A stretch of DNA of 23,462 nucleotides, from IMG/VR virus record IMGVR_UViG_2617270947_000006; one strand, 5' to 3'. The notes under the pieces were generated by a model, which was not told where the DNA came from, ran no database searches, and saw only the letters and a list, made by a program, of their open reading frames with translations. Below, in pieces: positions 8,162 to 23,462 of this stretch. Each line of letters starts with the position of its first letter. The stretch's first letter is position 1. A program made the position numbers and the translations under genes. This DNA comes from a virus (Duplodnaviria > Heunggongvirae > Uroviricota > Caudoviricetes).

Positions 8162-8344
8162 TTACTGCTTCGTTCTGATGATTTTTTCTGTCTGTCGGCA
8201 GTGCCGGTAAAGTTGCGACAGGGGGAGGTTAAGCGCCCATTCCGGACCGCTTTTTGTCACCATCCCCAGGATAATTGCCGCTTCTTCAATCTGATCCCGA
8301 CACTGCGCCTGATCGCCCCCGGTCAGCTGCCAGCTTTCCGGCAA
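8162..8344 (-). CDS. Possible frameshift-extension ORF of the tail assembly chaperone (no ATG start); hypothetical
   Basis: 60-codon open frame with no ATG (track start is TTG). It overlaps the 3' end of the chaperone gene in the +1 frame and ends 2 nt before the tape measure ATG. The arrangement resembles the chaperone/frameshift-product pairs upstream of tape measure genes in many tailed phages (for example P2 E/E'). Confidence 0.25.
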   Translation of the reverse strand: MPESWQLTGGDQAQCRDQIEEAAIILGMVTKSGPEWALNLPLSQLYRHCRQTEKIIRTKQ

Positions 8345-8762
8345 GCGCGGTATCCAGCAGGCTGACCGCTGCCATCAGGCGGGAGAGATCGCGCTCGCTT
8401 AACTGTCCAATCTGACGGGGTGACAACGGACCTTCAATGTCTCCCACTGCGGCAATCTGACGGCGCAGCAGTGCAACACCGCGTAACGACGGAGACGCTA
8501 TCAGCATCGGGCCATTGTTTGTCTCCACCACGCGCTCGGCTTCTGCTTCTGCGTCAATACTGTCTTTCGCTGTCAGTTCCCGGAACGTGACACGATATTC
8601 ACGGGTCTCACCAAACGGCAGACCATCAAGCAGATCCACATATCCCTTTGCCAGTTGCTCTGTCAGCCCGGCAGTGCGTGGATCAGCCCCCTCAAGTGCT
8701 TCCCGGATTGCCTCCATCACGACTGCCTCGGAAACTGCCGTTTTTTTCTTACGTGTGGTCAT
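8286..8762 (-). CDS. Tail assembly chaperone (Mu gp41-like), 158 aa
   Basis: Start placed at ATG 8760-8762 (MTTRKKK...) preceded by AGGAAAAATAAA; the track start is a GTG overlapping the tube stop. Position between tube and tape measure. Confidence 0.6.
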   Translation of the reverse strand: MTTRKKKTAVSEAVVMEAIREALEGADPRTAGLTEQLAKGYVDLLDGLPFGETREYRVTFRELTAKDSIDAEAEAERVVETNNGPMLIASPSLRGVALLRRQIAAVGDIEGPLSPRQIGQLSERDLSRLMAAVSLLDTALAGKLAADRGRSGAVSGSD

Positions 8763-8776
8763 TTTATTTTTCCTGA

Positions 8777-9142
8777 TCACTGAACACGGGTACTGGAGGC
8801 GCTGGCGAACTTCACGGAGATCTCCCCGCCACCGTCAAGCGAGGCCGGTTCACTGCTCCAGGCCTTCGTCATCATGTGGACTTCACCGGTATCGGCCACG
8901 AACTCAATCGTGACCGCAGTCCAGGTGTTGATTTCATCGGCAGCCGGTGAACCTTCTCCGCCAGCCGGAAATTTACAGTCCAGCGTCGCCTCACGGGGTT
9001 TCTCGCGATAGCCGTAGACTTTCGCGCCTTTCACCACTTCACGCTCAAAGCCGGACGGGGAGAACGTGGCTCCCTCAAGGGTGGCGTACTCCTGTCCGTT
9101 CACACGGATGGTGGCCGTGCCCTGATACTGTTTTCCGCTCAT
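8777..9142 (-). CDS. Tail tube protein (Mu gpM-like), 121 aa
   Basis: Small protein immediately downstream of the sheath gene; size matches the Mu tube protein. Confidence 0.8.
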   Translation of the reverse strand: MSGKQYQGTATIRVNGQEYATLEGATFSPSGFEREVVKGAKVYGYREKPREATLDCKFPAGGEGSPAADEINTWTAVTIEFVADTGEVHMMTKAWSSEPASLDGGGEISVKFASASSTRVQ

Positions 9143-9150
9143 GCCTTACC

Positions 9151-10653
9151 TCACAAAATGAAACGGATCTGCGCGGCCATGAAGCGGAACTGGTTAACCA
9201 GATCCGGTGTACACATCACATCCAGACGGTTACGGTCTTTTGTGTTGCGCTCCACGAGCAGATTCTTTTTAAAGGTGTCCAGATTTTCGACCAGTCCCAG
9301 CTCCACCCATTCTTCACCCAGCGAAATTAACTGAAGTTTCATGATCTCCGGCGTCACGATATTCTGACCTGCACGAACAGGCGTCCCGTCATCAGCCAGT
9401 TTATGGCGCGGAAAACGTTGCGTGATAAAGGTGCGCAGGGAATAACGCAGATATGACAGGGTGTAGATGGTTTCCACATCCAGATAGCTGGGATCGCTTT
9501 CGCCGTATGCATTCTGACGGTACATCGTCACCTGACGTTCAATCTGCACCATGTCAGCGGCCGCGACGGTCACCGTGGACATGCCGGTATAAAGCAGGCT
9601 GTTTCGCTCTTCCCGCGTCAGACGAGCTGGTGCTTCAGGTGCCATACGGGCAGGCAGCGCCAGTGTCTGTAATGGTCGGGCCGGATCCGTTGACAGGGAG
9701 GGCGCACAGACCGCACAAATGGAGGCCGCCCAGACATAATCCGGCTCTGGTGCTTTAGGAATAGAAGTGCAGGTAAACAGGAAGTCATTACGGGATTCAC
9801 CAAAACTGGTTGCCGTACCGAAGGTGCCGGTATGCGCCATCCAGACCATACCGTCCGACATTTTTACCGGTCCCCAGCGTTTCAGCAGTTCATCCGCCAG
9901 AATTTTGAGATTTGCCGCATCCTTATAGGGCATGACGATGTAGTTGTACTGACGATTCCCCATCCCTGAGACGCTACGGGTGATATCGGGGTTTGTTGCC
10001 TTCTGTGTTGGCGCGACGAGCTCCAGCGTAAGACCGGCCGGTGTAGTTTCACCGTCATAATAGTTCACCCGTAAATCATGAGCTGAGCATTCACCGATAA
10101 AGCGGGCGTTAACCCCCATGCTGCCTTTAAGTCCTTCAGCATTATCACCACTGACTTCAGCTGCGATAGCAGTGAATGGCGCATCAGTGTCAGCGTTAAT
10201 GACCTTAGCCAGCTCTTCCACAAGCTCTTTACCTTTTTTCCCCTTACTGACGGGCAGGAGGTAACGGCGACCGCCGATGTAAACACTTAACACCCCGTCT
10301 GCCAATGCTGTTCCAATGATATTCATCACGCATGCCCTGGACTGACCTGTTCCAGCCCCCTGTGCAATGGCATATAACTCTGTGTCAGGGTTAATGGCGA
10401 TAAATTCCTCTACCATCAGTGCAATCATGGAACCTCGCCCCCAGAGTTCTCTTGCTTGTGAAGCTCGGGTAATACGTACTGGTACATCAAGCTGACCGCG
10501 CCCCTGAATGGTGGTGTCTTTCATTGCAGCCTGACCAAACAACAGTACCGCCTGACGCTGTGGTGGAGTGCCGGTCACGGCCATTGAATTATTGATTTCA
10601 ATCTGTACCAGCGGAATGCGATTGTTATCGCCGATATAATCAAAGTTAATCAT
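9151..10653 (-). CDS. Contractile tail sheath protein (Mu gpL-like), 500 aa
   Basis: About 500 aa, immediately upstream of the tube gene in the canonical sheath-tube-chaperone-tape measure block. Confidence 0.9.
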   Translation of the reverse strand: MINFDYIGDNNRIPLVQIEINNSMAVTGTPPQRQAVLLFGQAAMKDTTIQGRGQLDVPVRITRASQARELWGRGSMIALMVEEFIAINPDTELYAIAQGAGTGQSRACVMNIIGTALADGVLSVYIGGRRYLLPVSKGKKGKELVEELAKVINADTDAPFTAIAAEVSGDNAEGLKGSMGVNARFIGECSAHDLRVNYYDGETTPAGLTLELVAPTQKATNPDITRSVSGMGNRQYNYIVMPYKDAANLKILADELLKRWGPVKMSDGMVWMAHTGTFGTATSFGESRNDFLFTCTSIPKAPEPDYVWAASICAVCAPSLSTDPARPLQTLALPARMAPEAPARLTREERNSLLYTGMSTVTVAAADMVQIERQVTMYRQNAYGESDPSYLDVETIYTLSYLRYSLRTFITQRFPRHKLADDGTPVRAGQNIVTPEIMKLQLISLGEEWVELGLVENLDTFKKNLLVERNTKDRNRLDVMCTPDLVNQFRFMAAQIRFIL

Positions 10654-14571: not shown

Positions 14572-15045
14572 TTACGGCGTTTCTGTGGCCTTTTTAAAGC
14601 GTTTTCTGATTTCGTCCATGATCTCCTGTTCTGCCACCTGATCAAAGCCCATATACGGACGTGCGCCAATGGCCGCCGGTCCCGGTGGCATACCAGGCAG
14701 GCCACCCCACTGATGAATGGCTGCATAAGGTTCATTTGATCCAATCAGCGCCCAGGTATCGCCATAATCCGTGGTCAGGCGGCGGGCCAGATCGCCGTTC
14801 AGCGTCAGGATTTTGCCGGGCGTGTATCCCTTACGGGTACGCCACTCACGGTAAGGATCTGACCAGTCATGCCAGCGTTCACCATCCGGCTCTTTTTCCT
14901 GCTCAAACGCCATTTCTGACGATGACAGAAGACTCGCCGCCACACTGCGGGCCAGGTCTTTTCCGCCGCCCACAAACTGAAGCCGGGCAAACACTCGCTG
15001 GAGACGCGTAACGTCAACAACGACAGCGGCATCAATGGATGACAT
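14572..15045 (-). CDS. Virion morphogenesis protein (Mu gpG-like), 157 aa
   Basis: Size matches Mu G (about 156 aa); ATG 15043-15045 preceded by GGAGG. Confidence 0.8.
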   Translation of the reverse strand: MSSIDAAVVVDVTRLQRVFARLQFVGGGKDLARSVAASLLSSSEMAFEQEKEPDGERWHDWSDPYREWRTRKGYTPGKILTLNGDLARRLTTDYGDTWALIGSNEPYAAIHQWGGLPGMPPGPAAIGARPYMGFDQVAEQEIMDEIRKRFKKATETP

Positions 15046-15166
15046 ATTGCCTCCGCATAAAGGATGAATATAAAATAAACAGGCGGTCAGTGTACGCTTA
15101 ACTGGTAAAGTCGGTGCCTGCCTCCGGGTGGATCATGTATGCGGGTTCGCCCCCCGCCACTGACCG

Positions 15167-16498
15167 TTAATCAATTTGTCCTTCCAGCACCTCAAGCATT
15201 CCGCCCCGGATATCCGATTTCAGCTTATCCATATTGATAACCCGGTAAGCATTCACAATCACATCCAGTTTGTCGGGCTGACGTTTCAGACTGTACGGTG
15301 CATTAACGGCAATCTGCACACTGCCATCCTGATTTTCCACGATATACATCAGATTGTTGTGCCGTTTGTCCCACAGTACCGCTTTTGGCTTTGCCAGCAT
15401 TGCCGGTAAGCGCCCGAAGTCCTCCGGCGTCAGAGCGATGCCGTCATTCTGATGTTTCACACTGTCCGCATGGAGCACATTTTTACCGCTCATCGCCAGC
15501 AGGCGGGCCGGTGGCGTTCCCGTCCGGCTTTCCACTGCCTGCGCAATGCTTTCAGTCATAAAGCCCAGCGTGCGGATATCGTTACCACCTCGCCGGGTCT
15601 GCATGATGTTTTTTGCCCAGATGCGGAACGCCAGCTGCCGCTCCGGGCTGTTGTTCATCTCCTGAACCACCATTTCCCGTAACGCCGGGCTTTTCACCTC
15701 GATCAGTTTGCGGATCAGCGCCTGGTCTGTGCCGAACGCTGCCGAGCCGGGGTTATATGACCAGCCCACATCCGGTGTCATGGTTCTGGTGCCATCTGAA
15801 TATGTGGTCACCGGCATTTCTCTGACTTCTCCGGTCTGTTTATCCACGCCAGCCTCAACATTGCGGGTGGAGAGATGATCCTCACCGGATGAAACGGATA
15901 ACCCCATTGCATCCAGACGGGCCTGAGACAATGGCCGCACACGGCAGCGGCAGTTCCAGCCATTGGGCGGGTAGTGTGTTTTCCAGAACGGATCGTCATA
16001 GCGGAATACCAGACCGTTAAGGGCGGAATGCGACGGGCGGGTACGGCTGTCCATGACCGCCACATACTGCCAGAACGGATGCGTGTCCGTGTTGTTCATC
16101 ATCTGCGTGTAACGCCCGGCATTGTAAGCCACACGGGTGTTCACGTTGTAAATCAGCGCCAGACGACGGGGACTGCCCAGCTGCACTTCTTCCGCGTTAC
16201 CGTCGCTGTCCACCACAATCTGCTTTCCCCACCATCCCAGCTTTTGCAGGCGTGGCGTCAGTGTGCGGATAAATTCTTTCTGTGAAATCCCCTCATCAAT
16301 GGCCCGCTGCACTTCGGCCTGTAATGTGGTTACCACATCCAGCCGTGCCGTTTTTGCTGCCGTGAATGAGCGGGCATGAACATCCGCGTCTGTTTCGAAC
16401 CAGTTCCAGCTGATATGCGCCCCTTTGGCGCGGAAGTATGCCACCGTCTCTTTTGAGGGAAGCGTGGCGGCATAACCTAAATCAATCCCCTGAGCCAT
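15167..16498 (-). CDS. Head morphogenesis protein (Mu gpF-like), 443 aa
   Basis: Size and position immediately after the portal gene (17-nt overlap). Confidence 0.85.
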   Translation of the reverse strand: MAQGIDLGYAATLPSKETVAYFRAKGAHISWNWFETDADVHARSFTAAKTARLDVVTTLQAEVQRAIDEGISQKEFIRTLTPRLQKLGWWGKQIVVDSDGNAEEVQLGSPRRLALIYNVNTRVAYNAGRYTQMMNNTDTHPFWQYVAVMDSRTRPSHSALNGLVFRYDDPFWKTHYPPNGWNCRCRVRPLSQARLDAMGLSVSSGEDHLSTRNVEAGVDKQTGEVREMPVTTYSDGTRTMTPDVGWSYNPGSAAFGTDQALIRKLIEVKSPALREMVVQEMNNSPERQLAFRIWAKNIMQTRRGGNDIRTLGFMTESIAQAVESRTGTPPARLLAMSGKNVLHADSVKHQNDGIALTPEDFGRLPAMLAKPKAVLWDKRHNNLMYIVENQDGSVQIAVNAPYSLKRQPDKLDVIVNAYRVINMDKLKSDIRGGMLEVLEGQID

Positions 16499-18080
16499 CC
16501 AGCATCCCCTTCATTTCCGCAGCAAACATGGCATCACTGAGCAGCGTCATCAGGCGGGAATCATCCATTTCACGGTAAAGGGCAGGCAGGTCTGCCAGTG
16601 CCTCCGCCAGCCCCCGCGTTCTGATGACATCAATGACCGGCTCCAGCACCGGATCGATGGCCTCCTGTAAGCGGCGGGCAGGCACCGCGTCCCCCATGTC
16701 GTCCAGTTCATCACGCGGCGTGTTTTTCGCTTCCGGCAGTCGGGCTGAAAGCGCCGTCTGTTCTGTCTTTTCCTGTTTTTCCGGTAGCGTTTCCCTGTCA
16801 GGCATGGCCGGTTCATTACTGTTCTGACGGACACGGAATATGGCTTCACCGGGCGTGGGCTGTGGAATACCGGTCTGCTCCCGTACCCAGGGATCAGGAA
16901 TATCCATCCCCGCACTGAGTTGCATCACCGCACTGGTTATTTTGGTGATATCCCCCGGTTCTTTGGTCTGGAAACAAATACGCGGCAGGCGACGGATATC
17001 AATGGCGTGGGCGGTGTTCAGGGCATACAGCGGATACACCAGATCGCGGTTCAGGGTTGCAGCCAGCTGGCGTAAATCAGAATCCCTGATTTCCCGGCGC
17101 ACCTCGTTATGCACCTCACCCAGCGAGCGCGCGCCTTTGTCTCCGGCTTCCGTGGTCAGCGTGCCGCCGAGTATTGCTTTGGAGATGGAACGCTCACCCC
17201 ACGAAATCATGGTTTCAAACGGATCGGCCTGACCGTTCGCTGCCGCCTGAAACTCCAGCGACATCCCGGCCGGGATGATCCCGCCTGTACGTCGCCCGAT
17301 ATCCATCACCGCCCGCATCAGGGCACTTTTCTGCTCCGGTGTTGCCCCGGACGGGTATTTCCCGACCTTCATTGGCAGGCCGTACACCTCCAGAAATTCC
17401 GCCAGATCGCGCACGGAATAGTTTTTGAAAATGAACGGCCAGATAAGCGTTCTGACAAGCCCCGTCGCACCACCGTAGCCGGTGCGTGAACGCGACTGAT
17501 GCACTATCCAGCCAAAGGGCTGAAACGCCACCCCGGCATGGCTGCCGTCACGCAGCCGCAGTTCGCTCAAATCATCCGGGTTAAGGCAGAAATGCCCGCT
17601 GTCACGCCAGCGGATGGCGCGGATGATGTGCATTTTACCGAGCATCCCGTGCTCAATTTCCATGCAGGAATAGCCCTTCAGGATGGCATCCGTGGCGTCA
17701 AACAGCATGGCATCAAACCAGTCTGCGGAATGCAGATATTCGTCGAGCATTTCCGCGTCCTTTTTCTCATTCGCGCTGGCGTTCGGTGGCGGCTCAATGC
17801 TCCATGGCACCCCCTGAATGGCAAGACGTCGCTTGCCCAGCTCCGCAAAAAGGTGGGTGTCCTTTTCTTCAATGTCAGCCGCCAGATCGGACTGGGCAAT
17901 CAGATCGCCACGTTCAGCCCCGCGAAGGCACTGCGCCGCCCGGTTCGGGGTGATACCCGAGGCGGGATGCTCAACATAACGGCTGGCAATCTGCGGAATA
18001 TCCAGCGCGGTACTTTGCATCTCCGGGTCAAAGGAGAAAGGTTTTCCGTCAAGATCAATTATGCGTCCCACTACCAGCAC
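16482..18080 (-). CDS. Portal protein (Mu gpH/gp29-like), 532 aa
   Basis: Size and position between TerL and F. The track start is a GTG overlapping the TerL stop, so the exact start is uncertain. Confidence 0.85.
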   Translation of the reverse strand: MLVVGRIIDLDGKPFSFDPEMQSTALDIPQIASRYVEHPASGITPNRAAQCLRGAERGDLIAQSDLAADIEEKDTHLFAELGKRRLAIQGVPWSIEPPPNASANEKKDAEMLDEYLHSADWFDAMLFDATDAILKGYSCMEIEHGMLGKMHIIRAIRWRDSGHFCLNPDDLSELRLRDGSHAGVAFQPFGWIVHQSRSRTGYGGATGLVRTLIWPFIFKNYSVRDLAEFLEVYGLPMKVGKYPSGATPEQKSALMRAVMDIGRRTGGIIPAGMSLEFQAAANGQADPFETMISWGERSISKAILGGTLTTEAGDKGARSLGEVHNEVRREIRDSDLRQLAATLNRDLVYPLYALNTAHAIDIRRLPRICFQTKEPGDITKITSAVMQLSAGMDIPDPWVREQTGIPQPTPGEAIFRVRQNSNEPAMPDRETLPEKQEKTEQTALSARLPEAKNTPRDELDDMGDAVPARRLQEAIDPVLEPVIDVIRTRGLAEALADLPALYREMDDSRLMTLLSDAMFAAEMKGMLDGSGD

Positions 18081-19735
18081 CCCCGATCAAATTCATGATA
18101 TGCCTCATCGTCATCACGATAACCGCCCTCCATTGCCCGCGACCGCTCCGGCAGCGCCTGACAGGCTGATTCATCCAGGATGAAACCCTCCATGTATGAC
18201 GCCCGGTTTGCCATACAGAGTGCCACGGCAAAATCACCATGGCGGCGGGCGTTCGCAGCCGTTGCGTTCTGGTCCTTCGTGCGCCCCTTGTCGATTTGCG
18301 GGATACCATTCACCACCTTCACATGGCGCAAATCATCAAGCGTGGTCTGATGGCGGGCGACGAGGATATTCTGATCTTCAAACTCGGCTTTCAGTTTTGG
18401 CATCCACTCGCCGTACCACTTCGGCGACAACATCACGCAGTCGATGATGTCCGGGCCAAAGGCCAGCAGTGCGGCCTCTGCCAGATAGCCGCCGTTACCG
18501 GTGGCGTCGAACGCCGCACCGACCAGCGCCGGAACGCGGGTCAGGATGTACATCATCACCTGTTCCTGCTGGGCATACGGCAGGTTGCGCAGCTCCACGC
18601 GAAACACCTCGCGCTTTGCCAGGAGTTCGGTGATTTCCAGCAGCACAAAGCAGGACAGGTCACCGGTGCGGGCAAAGTCTTCCCCGAAGCTGAAGCGGGA
18701 ACGGGGATTTAATTTCTCTAAAAGCGGTTTTAAATGTTCTTCACACCAGGTTAAAACTTCCGATTCACGCAGCCATGCGGCACGGCTGATGAAGTCGTCC
18801 GGGGCTTCAAACGTCAGAATCGGGATGTCACGAATCATCGCCATTTCAATAAGCGCGTGAGGAATATAGGCACCGCCGGATTTTTTCGGGATACAGCCGT
18901 ATTCCTCGTCGGCATCCTCACGGGTCGGGGCGTTTTTGTAGAGATCATCACGCCATTTCTGCTCGCTTTCCGGTGACCATTCCTGATCGGTGACGTAACA
19001 GATACGACGGTACAGCCCGTCCGCAATGGCATCATCCAGGGTTATGCGGTGGACGCTGTAATCCTTGCGCCCCTCGCGGGCTTCCTGAATGTACTGATTA
19101 AACAGATTATCGACGCCGTTATGCGTGGAAATAATGCGCACGCGTGCGCCCCACATAGTGAGCGCCATTGCCGCCTTGAGAAGCTCATCCAGTGACTCGT
19201 GGAACGCGGCTTCATCAATCACCACATCCCCCTGAAGACCGCGCAGGTTTGACGGACGGGAAGACAATGCCTGAATTTTGAATCCACTGTTCGGAAAGCG
19301 GATCATGTAGGTCAGAATTTCTTCTTTTTTATCCCGATCCCAGAATGTCTGCTCATACACATCAGCATCTGCCAGCTGGTTAAAGGCACGGGAGAACAGC
19401 GCGCAGGCAGAAATATATTCCAGCGCCATCTCCTGTTTTGACCCCACATAAAACACATTACGGCCACCACGACGCTTAGGCTTTGCGGCGGTAATGACGT
19501 TACGCCCGGCTTCCGCCCAGGTAAGCCCGGTGCGTCGGGATTTCTCCGCGATGCAGACCTGACTTTCATCTGCAAACCAGCGGGCCTGATAATCCAGAAA
19601 CACCGGCATATCACCGGGCAAATCAAGGCTGTCCGGCACATCCACGCCCAGCAGGGCTTTTTCACCGGACAGATCAATTTTGCGGGGAGGTGTCATTTGT
19701 ATCAGTGAAGGAGACTTTTCTTTGGCTTTGTTCAT
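18071..19735 (-). CDS. Terminase large subunit (Mu gp28-like), 554 aa
   Basis: Size and position upstream of the portal gene; ATG 19733-19735 overlaps the stop of the preceding small gene (ATGA). Confidence 0.9.
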   Translation of the reverse strand: MNKAKEKSPSLIQMTPPRKIDLSGEKALLGVDVPDSLDLPGDMPVFLDYQARWFADESQVCIAEKSRRTGLTWAEAGRNVITAAKPKRRGGRNVFYVGSKQEMALEYISACALFSRAFNQLADADVYEQTFWDRDKKEEILTYMIRFPNSGFKIQALSSRPSNLRGLQGDVVIDEAAFHESLDELLKAAMALTMWGARVRIISTHNGVDNLFNQYIQEAREGRKDYSVHRITLDDAIADGLYRRICYVTDQEWSPESEQKWRDDLYKNAPTREDADEEYGCIPKKSGGAYIPHALIEMAMIRDIPILTFEAPDDFISRAAWLRESEVLTWCEEHLKPLLEKLNPRSRFSFGEDFARTGDLSCFVLLEITELLAKREVFRVELRNLPYAQQEQVMMYILTRVPALVGAAFDATGNGGYLAEAALLAFGPDIIDCVMLSPKWYGEWMPKLKAEFEDQNILVARHQTTLDDLRHVKVVNGIPQIDKGRTKDQNATAANARRHGDFAVALCMANRASYMEGFILDESACQALPERSRAMEGGYRDDDEAYHEFDRGCW

Positions 19736-19983
19736 CAGGCTTTACCTGTCAGAATGCTTTTGATTCGGAACTCAAGCTCTTCAGTCATCACGTCCACGCC
19801 ACTCAACTCATCAGTGACAGCCCCTGCCAGCAGCGAATGCAGTTGTTCCAGGGATATTTCCCCGGCAATGCTGAGTTCAGTCAACTCACGACACGCTTTT
19901 ATGGTTTCAGGAGGTAACTGTGTTGCAAGACTGAATGCCTTCTGATGAGCACTACTCATCAGTGAGCGGTTATCTGTTACCAC
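19735..19983 (-). CDS. Small protein (82 aa) whose C-terminus is paralogous to the small-terminase C-terminal tail; possible terminase accessory factor
   Basis: GTG start at 19981-19983 preceded by AGGAGGTGA; stop overlaps the TerL ATG. C-terminus LAGAVTDELSGVDVMTEELEFRIKSILTGKA aligns with ANAVTDELRGVDGMSEQIEFRIRQMLLGKA at the end of the upstream 193-aa protein. Confidence 0.6.
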   Translation of the reverse strand: MVTDNRSLMSSAHQKAFSLATQLPPETIKACRELTELSIAGEISLEQLHSLLAGAVTDELSGVDVMTEELEFRIKSILTGKA

Positions 19984-19993
19984 GATTCACCTC

Positions 19994-20575
19994 CTACGCC
20001 TTACCAAGCAGCATCTGCCTGATACGGAATTCTATCTGCTCGCTCATGCCATCCACGCCGCGCAACTCGTCGGTGACGGCGTTCGCCATCTCTTCAGCAA
20101 ATGCGGCCCGGATTTCTTTTTCACGCTTAATGCTGCGCTCGGCGGCACTTTCCGCACGCTGTGCCGACAGGAGGATGTCCTTAATAAGGCGCATATCCAC
20201 ATCGCTGTCGCTGTTCAGGGATTCGGTGGCGGCACGCAGACGGCGGTACATCAGGGCACGGGACATCTCCAGAATCAGTGCCGTGGTTTCACCGGTCGGC
20301 TTATCCCCCAGTTCGGCCATCATGGCTTTTGTCTGCTCGCGTAAATCACGCAGATTACGGGCAATCAGCTCATTACGGGAGGCTTCCCGGCTGATGGCCG
20401 CCGGTGAAAGCTGCTGCTCTTCCGGCAGGCCTGCCTCACGGATCAGACGGTTGATTTCCTCGCGGATCTGGACCTGCGTCAGGCGTTTTTCACGCAGCAT
20501 TTCCAGCAGCGGCTTACGGATGCTGTCGGGGAGCAAATCCACCTTGCGTACACGGCCACGCGTCGGCTTATCCAT
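19994..20575 (-). CDS. Terminase small subunit / DNA-binding packaging protein (Mu gp27-like), 193 aa
   Basis: Charged, helical protein directly upstream of TerL. Confidence 0.75.
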   Translation of the reverse strand: MDKPTRGRVRKVDLLPDSIRKPLLEMLREKRLTQVQIREEINRLIREAGLPEEQQLSPAAISREASRNELIARNLRDLREQTKAMMAELGDKPTGETTALILEMSRALMYRRLRAATESLNSDSDVDMRLIKDILLSAQRAESAAERSIKREKEIRAAFAEEMANAVTDELRGVDGMSEQIEFRIRQMLLGKA

Positions 20576-20577
20576 CG

Positions 20578-20868
20578 TTACCCCCTTGCGCGTGGTTTCT
20601 TCACACCCGGAACAGTGGCACGACCTTCCGCCACATCCTGACCCCGGCCGGTCAGTTCAGCGATGAAATAACCGTTAACAAGCGTGCGCTTACGCACCAG
20701 TCCCTGCTCAGCAAGCCAGGCAATGTGGGTGTGAACGGTGTCGCGGGACACGCGGTGGCCGTAATCATCCAGGCAGTCCTGAAGCACGGATTCGCCCAGT
20801 TCGCCGTTGTAATCCGCCAGCGACCGCAGAATGACAAGACGCTGATCTTCAGTAATGAAATCACTCAT
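20578..20868 (-). CDS. Mu gp26-like small protein, 96 aa
   Basis: Synteny between the lysis-associated genes and the small terminase. Confidence 0.55.
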   Translation of the reverse strand: MSDFITEDQRLVILRSLADYNGELGESVLQDCLDDYGHRVSRDTVHTHIAWLAEQGLVRKRTLVNGYFIAELTGRGQDVAEGRATVPGVKKPRARG

Positions 20869-21172
20869 TGTGTTTTTTCCTTACAGCCTGCTCCAGCAGC
20901 AGTTCGTTCTGGTGGGAGACGGATTTCAGGGTGGCATTGGTGGCCTTAAGCTCACCGCGCAGGGTGGTGATTTCGATATTGAGTCTGTTCACCTCCTGCT
21001 GCGTGGGCAGGCCGGAAATCCTGCTCTCCACCCGCTCAACCCGGTCGGAGAGTTTTTCAAAGGCCTCGCGGGGGACAAAGGTTTTGCGCATCAGCGCCAT
21101 AAAGATCCCCCCGGCCGTGGCTGTTGCCGACAGGATCGGCACGACATAATCTTTAACGATGCTGACCCACAT
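20861..21172 (-). CDS. Membrane-anchored coiled-coil protein (Mu gp25-like; candidate releasin/holin-like lysis factor), 103 aa
   Basis: ATG 21170-21172 preceded by GGAGG. One N-terminal hydrophobic segment (VVPILSATATAGGIFMALM) followed by a coiled-coil-like region; sits in the lysis-cassette position. Confidence 0.6.
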   Translation of the reverse strand: MWVSIVKDYVVPILSATATAGGIFMALMRKTFVPREAFEKLSDRVERVESRISGLPTQQEVNRLNIEITTLRGELKATNATLKSVSHQNELLLEQAVRKKHNE

Positions 21173-21380
21173 GACCGGCCTCCATGATGCTCTGGCAGTT
21201 CACACAACGGATGGCATCCGGCACGGCAACCAGACGGGCGGCCGGAATGTCACCCCCGCAGTCTGCGCATACACGCCTGCCCGGAGTCTCCTCCACCCGG
21301 CACTTACGTGTCAGCCGGTCACAAAGGGCGCGTTCTGTTGCCCGCTCCACGACTGCCTGAGCACAATCTGAATCATCCAT
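21153..21380 (-). CDS. TraR/DksA-family C4 zinc-finger protein, 75 aa
   Basis: Start placed at ATG 21378-21380 (MDDSDCAQ...) preceded by AAGGA. Contains CADCGGDIPAARLVAVPDAIRCVNCQ, a CxxC-x17-CxxC motif typical of TraR/DksA zinc fingers. Confidence 0.75.
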   Translation of the reverse strand: MDDSDCAQAVVERATERALCDRLTRKCRVEETPGRRVCADCGGDIPAARLVAVPDAIRCVNCQSIMEAGHVGQHR

Positions 21381-21390
21381 ACCTTTTTCC

Positions 21391-21762
21391 TTACTTCGTC
21401 TTTCCTGCCGGAACAGCAGTCGTTCCGGCCATATCAGTAAATTCATGCTGTCGCTGTGCCTCCAGACGGCGGATGCTGGCCTTGTCCACGTTGCAGTTCT
21501 TAATCACCGCCAGCAGTTGCAGGTTGTAAGTGACCGATGCGCCAAACGTGAACGGCTGCGGCACAGGAGGAACCAGACAGTCAGCCAGCCATTCAGCGGG
21601 GATCGGCACCGGCTTCACCGGCACGTATTTCACAGACGGCCCGCCGCACCCGGTCAGCCACATCATCAGGCACAGGAACAGAGGCCGCAGGCACCGTTGC
21701 CAGCGACCGGCGGACAATGCTCTGCTGTTCCTCGCTGTGCTGCATGTTCTGCTGTTTTTCAT
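21391..21762 (-). CDS. Outer-membrane spanin lipoprotein (o-spanin, Rz1-like), overlapping the i-spanin gene in another frame
   Basis: Lipobox L-T-G-C preceded by a hydrophobic stretch (RCLRPLFLCLMMWLTGC); the mature part is proline-rich (VPVKPVPIPAEW, LVPPVPQPF). Start not certain: ATG 21760-21762 or an internal TTG. Confidence 0.6.
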   Translation of the reverse strand: MKNSRTCSTARNSRALSAGRWQRCLRPLFLCLMMWLTGCGGPSVKYVPVKPVPIPAEWLADCLVPPVPQPFTFGASVTYNLQLLAVIKNCNVDKASIRRLEAQRQHEFTDMAGTTAVPAGKTK

Positions 21763-22093
21763 TCGTGGCCGCCTTACTGATTTGTGAAATGAGTTGCAGG
21801 GTACGTTGCTGGTTTGCCAGCACCAGACGGGCTTCGTCCCGTTCACGCACAAGCACATGATTATTGTCTTCAAGGCGCTGCGTCTTCTGGTGCATTCCCC
21901 ATACCACGGCAGCCAGCACGCTCATCACCCCCAGCGCCGCCATACACCCTCCGGCAATCAGGGCCGGTAAGGGATTATTCACCGCAGCCACAGCACACCC
22001 CGGAGCACCACAACGACACACAACAGCGCAATCATGAGTGGTCGCCAGAAGCGGTTCAGACTTTCGGCAAATCGTAGCGACATAACCATTCAT
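21593..22093 (-). CDS. Inner-membrane spanin (i-spanin, Rz-like); start ambiguous
   Basis: Single transmembrane segment (ALIAGGCMAALGVMSVLAAVVWG) followed by a charged coiled-coil periplasmic domain; the o-spanin gene is embedded and overlapping. Start is either ATG 22091-22093 or GTG 21980-21982. Confidence 0.55.
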   Translation of the reverse strand: MNGYVATICRKSEPLLATTHDCAVVCRCGAPGCAVAAVNNPLPALIAGGCMAALGVMSVLAAVVWGMHQKTQRLEDNNHVLVRERDEARLVLANQQRTLQLISQISKAATNEKQQNMQHSEEQQSIVRRSLATVPAASVPVPDDVADRVRRAVCEIRAGEAGADPR

Positions 22094-22131
22094 CCGCCGA
22101 ACGGCGGGCCTCAAGACCGGGGAGTTTTACC

Positions 22132-23462
22132 CATAAGCGCTAACTTAAGGGTTGAACCATCTGAAGAATGCGACGCCTCGGTGCCTCGTTAAGACGATGC
22201 CTCGCGTTCTTCAATTGCGTTTTGTAGGCTGTCAGGGATACTGTCCCACGAATGGCCACCTGTAAGCTCCAGATGACCATTTTTGTTATTCTCCACAACG
22301 AGTTAGTTCTTCTTTTCGGATCCGGCACTTCTGGGGGGGAAATCCAGCGATGGCTGGATTATGTCGTCAATTAAAAATGCGGCGAGTAGATTAGCAAATA
22401 TCCACGCTTTCGCGAGTTCAGGTTCCTTTGCACGCAAAGCATCCAGGTGCAGCAAACTTTTGAGCCGCTTAAAAGCCAGTTCAATTTGCCATCGCAGACG
22501 GTAACAATCAGCCACTTGCTCTGCTGAATATTCATCTTCCGGTAATGATGTTAGCAATAACACATGGCCCGCTGCTTCCAGCGTTTCCGCCTGAACTACT
22601 CGTCCTTTTCGACGATTCTCGCTGAGCAGTCGGGTTTTACTGATTAATGCTTTTTCGGGAGGAAGTGATACGGCAATGAGACGTGCCGGAAAGGGAGCTC
22701 CGGCTTTTTTATTACCTGAATTGCCTATCATTACAGTGGTTTCACCGTTCTTACCGCAATCCAGCCCGCGCAGAAAACCCATCATGTCAAAGCGCATTCC
22801 TTCTGCAGTTAACCAGCGCAATCCTCGCCAGTGAACCCGGACGATATAATCAGCTTCTCCAAAAGCAAGTGAGCGGATACATTCGGGACGCGAACCGAAT
22901 CCCCGGTCAGCAATGCGTATCTCGTCTGCCGTTTGCGCAAATCGGTCCAGCCGTTCAGCGTCTCTGCTGTCGGTTAGCTCAAAATCAGTGAACTGACAGG
23001 TATGAGGATCATATCCCATATGTAGTCGCCATTCAGCGCTGCCGCCCCCGGGCGCACTGATTGCTGTTCCATCGACAAGACGCAATCTCTTTCCGCTTGT
23101 ACAACCCGTAACTGCGGCGCGTACAGCAAGTGTTTGTGCGGCAAGTATGCCAAACCAGTCGGCGGCATTCCGCAGCCGCTTCAGGAGAGCCACGTCAGAT
23201 AATGTTGCAACGTCATGGAGCTGAGCCCATGCAGTGACTTCACGTAATGACATCCCCCCGGGGCCGTAAGCCAGCCCCAGACGTAGCAGAGTTGCAGCAT
23301 CACGAATTTCGCGGCGGCGGGTTAGAGCCCCGGCATTACGTGCCGAAGTATCCAGTTCTTCGGGCTTACCAATATGGGCCAGAATTGCTGACCAGTTATC
23401 GTGAGAGTAATTCATCGGCACGTTAAATCATATCAGGCGTAATACCACAACCCTTAAGTTAG
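22132..23462 (-). mobile_element. IS186-type insertion sequence (IS4 family), truncated by the window end
   Basis: Terminal sequence CATAAGCGCTAACTTAAGGGTTG at 22132-22154; its 15-nt core (22141-22155) is mirrored by CAACCCTTAAGTTAG at 23448-23462 at the window edge. Encodes one 370-aa DDE transposase with the IS4-family Y-x2-R-x3-E-x6-K signature. About 8 bp of the right inverted repeat should lie beyond the window. Confidence 0.85.
22303..23415 (-). CDS. insL: IS186 transposase (IS4 family DDE), 370 aa
   Basis: The translation MNYSHDNWSAILAHIGKPEEL...DCYRLRWQIELAFKRLK matches IS186 InsL of E. coli as I recall it. Start placed at ATG 23413-23415; the track start is a GTG two codons upstream. 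Confidence 0.8.
   Translation of the reverse strand: MNYSHDNWSAILAHIGKPEELDTSARNAGALTRRREIRDAATLLRLGLAYGPGGMSLREVTAWAQLHDVATLSDVALLKRLRNAADWFGILAAQTLAVRAAVTGCTSGKRLRLVDGTAISAPGGGSAEWRLHMGYDPHTCQFTDFELTDSRDAERLDRFAQTADEIRIADRGFGSRPECIRSLAFGEADYIVRVHWRGLRWLTAEGMRFDMMGFLRGLDCGKNGETTVMIGNSGNKKAGAPFPARLIAVSLPPEKALISKTRLLSENRRKGRVVQAETLEAAGHVLLLTSLPEDEYSAEQVADCYRLRWQIELAFKRLKSLLHLDALRAKEPELAKAWIFANLLAAFLIDDIIQPSLDFPPRSAGSEKKN

Follow-up and report, generated by a model that had tools for sequence, protein, structure and literature searches.

The stretch of DNA analysed here (the window, 23,462 nt) carries the late region of a Mu-like prophage, which ends at its right side in a copy of IS186. Late gene families were assigned by Pfam searches on the identical or near-identical genes of relatives and from their PGAP annotation. 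The open reading frames of the window are colinear with these genes and comprise the Mu-type late set of Gp27, TerL, Portal_Mu, Mu F, G, protease I, gpT, Gp36, and Gp37, followed by the sheath, tube, tape measure, and baseplate proteins. The late region is 94–99.8% identical to that of Mu-like prophages of E. coli and Shigella chromosomes, and the layout is that of the prophages of strains AF39 and 23CRST047. A preliminary description of this DNA had taken it for a Mu-like prophage and suggested an Escherichia/Shigella host, and our results agree on both points. The prophage is distinct from Mu; the only DNA-level matches in the phage collection were Mu-like inserts in Stx phages (89%). Members of the Mu-like family were present in 228–231 of the 5426 complete E. 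coli genomes, O157:H7 strains included.

The relative closest to the window overall was the prophage of 23CRST047 (99.2% identity, no gaps over 22 kb). PGAP calls the late genes of this relative intact, except for an ISEc43 insertion of its own, and from the ungapped 22-kb alignment we conclude that the late genes of the window are intact. The 23CRST047 prophage (locus L002) contains two IS66-family elements, at positions 17830–20246 and 42361–44696: ISEc43 interrupts the DNA-circularization gene, and ISEc22 has inserted into the early region. A frameshift affects the MuA transposase gene of this prophage. At the left end, the window starts inside a plus-strand tail-fibre assembly gene of a Gin-type invertible segment (positions 1–91 and 321–461). 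The neighbouring tail-fibre fragment matches it in inverted orientation at 87%, and relatives carry a recombinase gene immediately next to this end. Together with the IS186 end, this suggests that the window represents a complete short-read contig, interrupted on either side by a repeat (the invertible segment and IS186). An 80-nt stretch on the plus strand (15086–15165), opposite to the late genes and located between the G-like (14572–15045) and F-like (15167–16498) genes, is annotated by PGAP as 'tRNA-OTHER' in relatives. It can be drawn as a rough cloverleaf with a 7-bp acceptor stem, a 5-bp T-arm whose loop reads TTCGCCC, and an 'anticodon' loop of 4 nt; its fold was no better than that of shuffled sequences (z=-0.84), and neither ARAGORN nor Rfam found RNA genes in the window, this stretch included.

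The lysis genes lie at the promoter-proximal end of the late region, on the minus strand. In phage Mu, the holin-less lysis cassette consists of the SAR endolysin gp22, the spanins gp23/23.1, gp24, and the releasin gp25; its promoter, Plys, is located past the C activator gene (Chamblee et al., 2022; PMC9239132). In the relatives of the window prophage, the gene order is GemA/gp16, Mor/C-family activator, endolysin, and i-spanin, so the claim of the preliminary description that an endolysin and a C activator precede the spanins in Mu-type genomes was borne out. In all relatives examined, 71 bp separate the endolysin gene from an upstream gene for a 140-aa Mor/C-family protein, whose family bears the PHROG label 'late transcriptional activator'. 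Downstream of the endolysin position, the window carries, in order, genes for the i-spanin, the o-spanin, a TraR/DksA protein, DUF2730, Gp27, TerL, portal, F, G, protease, major head, and tail. The Mu-type cassette of SAR endolysin, two-component spanin, and DUF2730 is thus represented in the window, with the endolysin as a remnant. The family shares with Mu the Mor/C activator, a GH24 SAR endolysin whose SAR helix is preceded by basic residues, i- and o-spanin genes that overlap, the TraR/DksA protein, and DUF2730, after which the Mu-type genes for terminase, portal, F, and G are located. It differs from Mu in that the closest solved relative of its endolysin is R of phage 21 and, for the window prophage, in that the endolysin gene is broken.

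The Rz-like i-spanin gene (21593–21943, minus strand; 116 aa from the ATG at 21943) was recognized by phrog_214 (E=1.3e-29) and, on the identical protein of relatives, by PF10828. Gene callers place its start in relatives either at this ATG or at an upstream GTG at 22021. Two further starts, TTG 22114 and ATG 22093, represent the outer limits of the open reading frame and were rejected since they lie in the endolysin remnant. The end of the IS is therefore approximately 110–190 nt upstream of the i-spanin start, and the distance of 17–40 nt given previously has to be corrected. The o-spanin gene lysC (21391–21666, minus strand; PF23793, E=3.5e-17; phrog_3001) is Rz1-like, has the lipobox LTGC, and overlaps the i-spanin gene. 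The starts assigned to lysC by PGAP in relatives (72–80 aa) fall after the lipobox, and translation from the upstream in-frame TTG at 21717 would give the protein a plausible lipoprotein signal peptide (…RWQRCLRPLFLCLMMWLTGC). PGAP thus probably calls the gene too short, and TTG 21717 may be the true start. The DUF2730 gene (20861–21172, minus strand; PF10805 on the identical gene in relatives, phrog_736) encodes a homologue of the Mu gp25 releasin, which frees SAR endolysins (PMC9239132), and is also located downstream of the IS186 insertion. Between the endolysin stop codon and the i-spanin start, a small open reading frame of 18 codons (21979–22035, minus strand) encodes the very hydrophobic sequence MIALLCVVVVLRGVLWLR. 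It is in a frame different from that of the i-spanin, is unannotated in relatives, and could be either a chance frame or a small membrane peptide.

To the right of the lysis genes, the window is occupied by the insertion sequence, 22132–23462, minus strand. The reverse complement of this segment aligned with IS186A of E. coli K-12 MG1655 over approximately 1330 nt with one synonymous mismatch and no gaps, and phage homology stops at 22132. The element contains the intact insL gene (22303–23415, minus strand), which encodes the single 370-aa DDE transposase InsL characteristic of IS186 (PF01609 DDE_Tnp_1, E=1.6e-26) and is codirectional with the phage late genes. The identity of the element proposed in the preliminary description was therefore correct; the interval 22056–22131, which had been counted within the IS, belongs instead to the phage. 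The transposase-distal end has the complete 23-bp terminal inverted repeat CATAAGCGCTAACTTAAGGGTTG (22132–22154). Of the second, transposase-proximal repeat, 15 of the 23 nt are within the window (23448–23462); they form a perfect complement of the first repeat, and the last 8 nt of the element (CGCTTATG) lie past the window end. The three K-12 copies of this IS4-family element (IS186A, IS186B, and IS186C) have the same 23-bp terminal repeats and 370-aa transposase, and the flank geometry is common to both, with IS186A of K-12 located in GGGG(ATCACT)CCCC. The window copy differs from those of K-12 only by its location in a prophage endolysin gene and by a 7-nt target core vs. a 6-nt core.

To locate the junction, segment 20500–23462 was compared by megablast with the 5426 complete E. 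coli genomes. Many Mu-like prophages matched, and all these matches ended at query position 1633, corresponding to 22132 of the window; the boundary of prophage homology is thus 22131/22132. For the junction segment, the closest relative was strain AF39, 99.8% identical and uninterrupted, in which the equivalent position is located 76 nt before the stop codon of a gene for a 166-aa protein annotated as 'lysozyme'. The corresponding 76 nt of the window (22056–22131, minus strand) comprise 2 nt of codon 142, codons 143–166 (VKLPGLEARRSADEWLCRYDLPKV), and the stop codon, and have no start codon. The preliminary description had listed three minus-strand stop codons next to the junction, and all of them were found: TAA at 22129–22127, TGA at 22113–22111, and TGA at 22058–22056. 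The last one closes the relevant frame, and the translation of this frame, VKLPGLEARRSADEWLCRYDLPKV followed by a stop, is identical to the C-terminus of the 166-aa lysozyme of relatives. It had also been proposed that a gene cut by the IS could end just inside the junction, and this frame, with the last 24 codons of the endolysin, is such an end. IS186 is located at codon 146 of 166, near the 3' end of the gene.

Alignment to uninterrupted Mu-like relatives, which had been suggested as a check, consequently places the element inside the endolysin gene. The possible truncation of the endolysin raised in the preliminary description is confirmed as an interruption of the 166-aa SAR endolysin gene. 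The alternative of a clean insertion at an intergenic site does not hold, as the site is within a gene. The expectation that IS186 occupies the place of the endolysin and the late activator held in part: the endolysin gene is split, and neither gene was replaced. Replacement of both genes by IS186 was rejected since the 3' end of the endolysin gene is still there, in register. Location of the IS outside the prophage boundary does not hold either. In all relatives MuA, MuB, and the Mor/C activator are encoded beyond the endolysin gene, in a region corresponding to positions past the window end, and approximately 11 kb of early region (Gam, MuB, MuA, and repressor) follow the activator, which places IS186 well inside the prophage, approximately 11 kb from its boundary.

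The gene split by IS186 is a P21-R-like SAR endolysin gene, intact in relatives. The intact 166-aa protein is a GH24 phage lysozyme, with PF00959 covering residues 33–154. It has the catalytic triad E-x8-D-x5-T within the region WEGKENTTYLDPTGTPT, and its N-terminal segment is basic and weakly hydrophobic. Residues 5–161 align with the structure of the SAR endolysin of phage 21 (3HDE, E=4e-26), and residues 147–166 correspond in this alignment to the GLxxRRxxE helix conserved at the C-terminus of phage 21 R. The window itself contains only codons 143–166 and hence neither the full GH24 domain, nor the triad, nor the N-terminal SAR helix.

The position of the insertion is explained by the target site. 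IS186 is known to insert almost exclusively at 5'-GGGG(N6/N7)CCCC-3', a motif with only 54 copies in the K-12 genome, and a single site can receive repeated insertions of either orientation (Lee et al., 2016; PMC5009759). At the position equivalent to the junction, the uninterrupted target of AF39 reads GGGGAGTTTTACCCC, which contains the perfect IS186 motif GGGG(AGTTTTA)CCCC; the same reading was obtained for the uninterrupted relatives. In the window, the 7-nt core AGTTTTA occupies 22123–22129 and belongs to one half of the split target. The copy of the target-site duplication on the late-gene side is GGAGTTTTACC (22121–22131, plus-strand reading), 11 bp long if the IS starts at CATAAG; the second copy would lie past the window end. 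No intact GGGG(N6/N7)CCCC motif is left in the window, since IS186 splits it. The motif is encoded by endolysin codons 141–147 (K-G-V-K-L-P-G). Among the 15 related prophage stretches scanned (13–48 kb), each contained one motif, in the endolysin gene, with the exception of L019 (CP103972.1), in which two further matches were found at 20204 and 20325, near the end of the locus. This prophage has also lost the terminase-to-baseplate region, so that DUF2730 is directly followed by tail-fibre genes. The motif is also conserved in the more distant O157:H7 relative. Target specificity alone accounts for the position of the insertion. The hotspots described by Lee et al. (2016; PMC5009759), e.g., fimA and menC, likewise consist of a perfect motif in a coding sequence and were struck repeatedly; they are located in core genes, whereas the site in the window is on a mobile prophage. 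In a literature search, we found no paper on the endolysin gene as a hotspot or on a link between IS186 and prophage endolysins.

The same junction was found in two further assemblies of the same lineage, L008 (GCA_000601155.1) and L009 (ENA ERZ1743135), which are 99.97–99.99% identical to the window over 14 kb and whose contigs likewise end inside IS186. This finding bears on the possibility that phage and IS were joined chimerically at a repeat during assembly, with no real insertion. The window does resemble a repeat-bounded short-read contig, with an invertible tail-fibre segment on the left and IS186 on the right. However, the join falls at the exact terminus of the IS and within a perfect IS186 target motif, it is repeated in the independently made NCBI and ENA assemblies, and a complementary truncated protein of 146 aa exists (see below). 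We therefore regard an artefact as extremely improbable. The presence of the junction in both NCBI and ENA contigs indicates that the insertion is a real allele of the sequenced lineage.

In a simple insertion, the edge of the element, CATAAGCGCTAACTTAAGGGTTGTGG, would be followed past the IS by GGAGTTTTACC and the reverse complement of endolysin codons 1–142, and then by Mor. The length of the duplication, 11 bp, was assumed by analogy with K-12 and corresponds to GGTAAAACTCC on the coding strand. The promoter-proximal part of the gene would then read …GTA AAA CTC C/CA TAA (the slash marks the junction), its stop codon coming from the end of the IS, and the predicted N-terminal product would be 146 aa long, ending with VKLP. 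Exact look-up in a public protein collection recovered this 146-aa product (P0013) from three endolysin alleles, encoded on 29, 8, and 3 contigs, respectively; one of the contigs is 5.27 Mb long. The products expected from duplications of 10, 12, or 13 bp were absent from the same collection by exact look-up. As both termini of the IS are identical, the 146-aa products are uninformative on its orientation. We infer that the far junction in the genome of the window has this structure, and the activator is expected to be intact and to lie outside the window, approximately 0.5 kb from the far IS end.

A less simple history would be recombination between IS copies after the insertion, by which the far side was deleted or inverted, so that the IS would no longer be followed by the 5' part of the endolysin gene, Mor, and the early region. 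The window, L008, and L009 all end inside the IS, and the adjacency was never observed in them. IS copies of E. coli recombine frequently (4.5e-5 per genome per generation; PMC5009759), and relatives have decayed in other ways, such as the loss of the head-tail region in L019 and a lysozyme-LysC deletion fusion in P0002. On the other hand, contigs ending in a multi-copy IS are to be expected from short-read assembly and are uninformative in this respect, and the exact 146-aa product of a simple insertion is present on approximately 40 contigs, one of them of 5.27 Mb. A subsequent rearrangement thus appears unlikely in comparison with a simple insertion. The fusion in P0002 (a 21.9-kb Logan contig) is in-frame and encodes 196 aa, joining endolysin residues ~1–126 to the C-terminal part of LysC with deletion of the i-spanin.

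The endolysin gene was also interrupted independently at a second site. In L017 (CM127658.1, GCA_052766285.1), a complete IS186 (8179–9522) is located in the same gene at codons ~47–50, inside the catalytic D-x5-T region and in the opposite orientation, with Mor intact upstream. A duplication of 10 bp (ACCGGCACCC) flanks the element, which lies in a GC-rich target other than the canonical motif. Among complete genomes, such alleles were not encountered: the 5426 complete RefSeq E. coli genomes did not contain the window junction, and the endolysin-Mor region was uninterrupted in all 231 that have it. Neither the left junction nor the predicted right junction had an exact match in GTDB representative genomes or in JGI metagenomes, a result attributable to the absence of the source lineage from those collections. 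Disrupted endolysin alleles are thus rare, though recurring on three allele backgrounds at the window site.

Such recurrence could in principle reflect selection, either through domestication of the prophage by a block in lysis or through transcription from IS186 that drives the spanin, releasin, and packaging genes without the phage activator. The repeated strikes on the endolysin gene, at the window site on three allele backgrounds and at the second site in L017, would fit this explanation, as would the codirectional transposase gene with no strong terminator predicted before the spanin genes. Yet the hotspot motif predicts recurrence without any selection, since 16 independent IS186 insertions hit one site in mutation-accumulation lines (Lee et al., 2016; PMC5009759). 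The allele is moreover rare, being absent from all 231 complete genomes with the region, and no promoter-like site was found in 21300–23462. Selection for the insertion is therefore very unlikely.

Taken together, the data very probably reflect a simple insertion of IS186 at its own motif, which split the SAR endolysin gene and probably left a lysis-defective prophage with intact structural genes. According to this scheme, IS186 would have transposed into GGGG(N7)CCCC within the endolysin gene of a Mu-like prophage in an E. coli or Shigella chromosome. Residues 1–146 would remain encoded on the promoter-proximal side, with the last 24 codons left as a dead remnant at 22056–22131, and the spanin, releasin, terminase, portal, and head genes would now be approximately 1.34 kb, the length of the IS, further from the promoter preceding the endolysin gene.

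The 146-aa enzyme is probably inactive, judging from its sequence, since without residues 147–166 it would lack the GLxxRRxxE helix and the last positions of PF00959. Endolysin mutants of Mu are lysis-defective (PMC9239132), and by analogy the window prophage is likely unable to lyse its host. Expression of the late operon may be reduced as well, with the structural genes themselves intact. A promoter scan of 21300–23462 found no sigma-70-like promoter. On the late-gene strand, no convincing intrinsic terminator was found, the only candidate being a weak 5-bp hairpin inside the transposase open reading frame. With a codirectional transposase gene and no convincing terminator, transcriptional read-through is possible, the structural region that the preliminary description proposed to be perhaps silent may still be transcribed, and any polarity on the downstream genes may be incomplete.

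The insertion represents ordinary prophage decay. IS186, its motif, Mu-like prophages, and IS-driven decay are all already known, current understanding is unchallenged by the insertion, and the missing literature on IS186 and endolysins is a cataloguing gap rather than a new phenomenon. For annotation, the 76-nt stretch 22056–22131 should be labelled as an endolysin pseudogene fragment and the prophage scored as probably lysis-defective instead of intact. The motif in the endolysin gene may also explain the recurring 146-aa 'lysozyme' in public assemblies on different alleles, and the narrow target motif of IS186 can predict which prophage gene gets struck. It is conceivable, though we consider it unlikely, that through the conserved motif the host IS186 recurrently and predictably 'disarms' this widespread Mu-like family, given at least three allele backgrounds at the window site and a second site, and that lysis-dead but structurally intact prophages might be kept for a benefit to the host. 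If this were true, the benefit could be, e.g., immunity, Mom, or IS-driven expression of the downstream genes.
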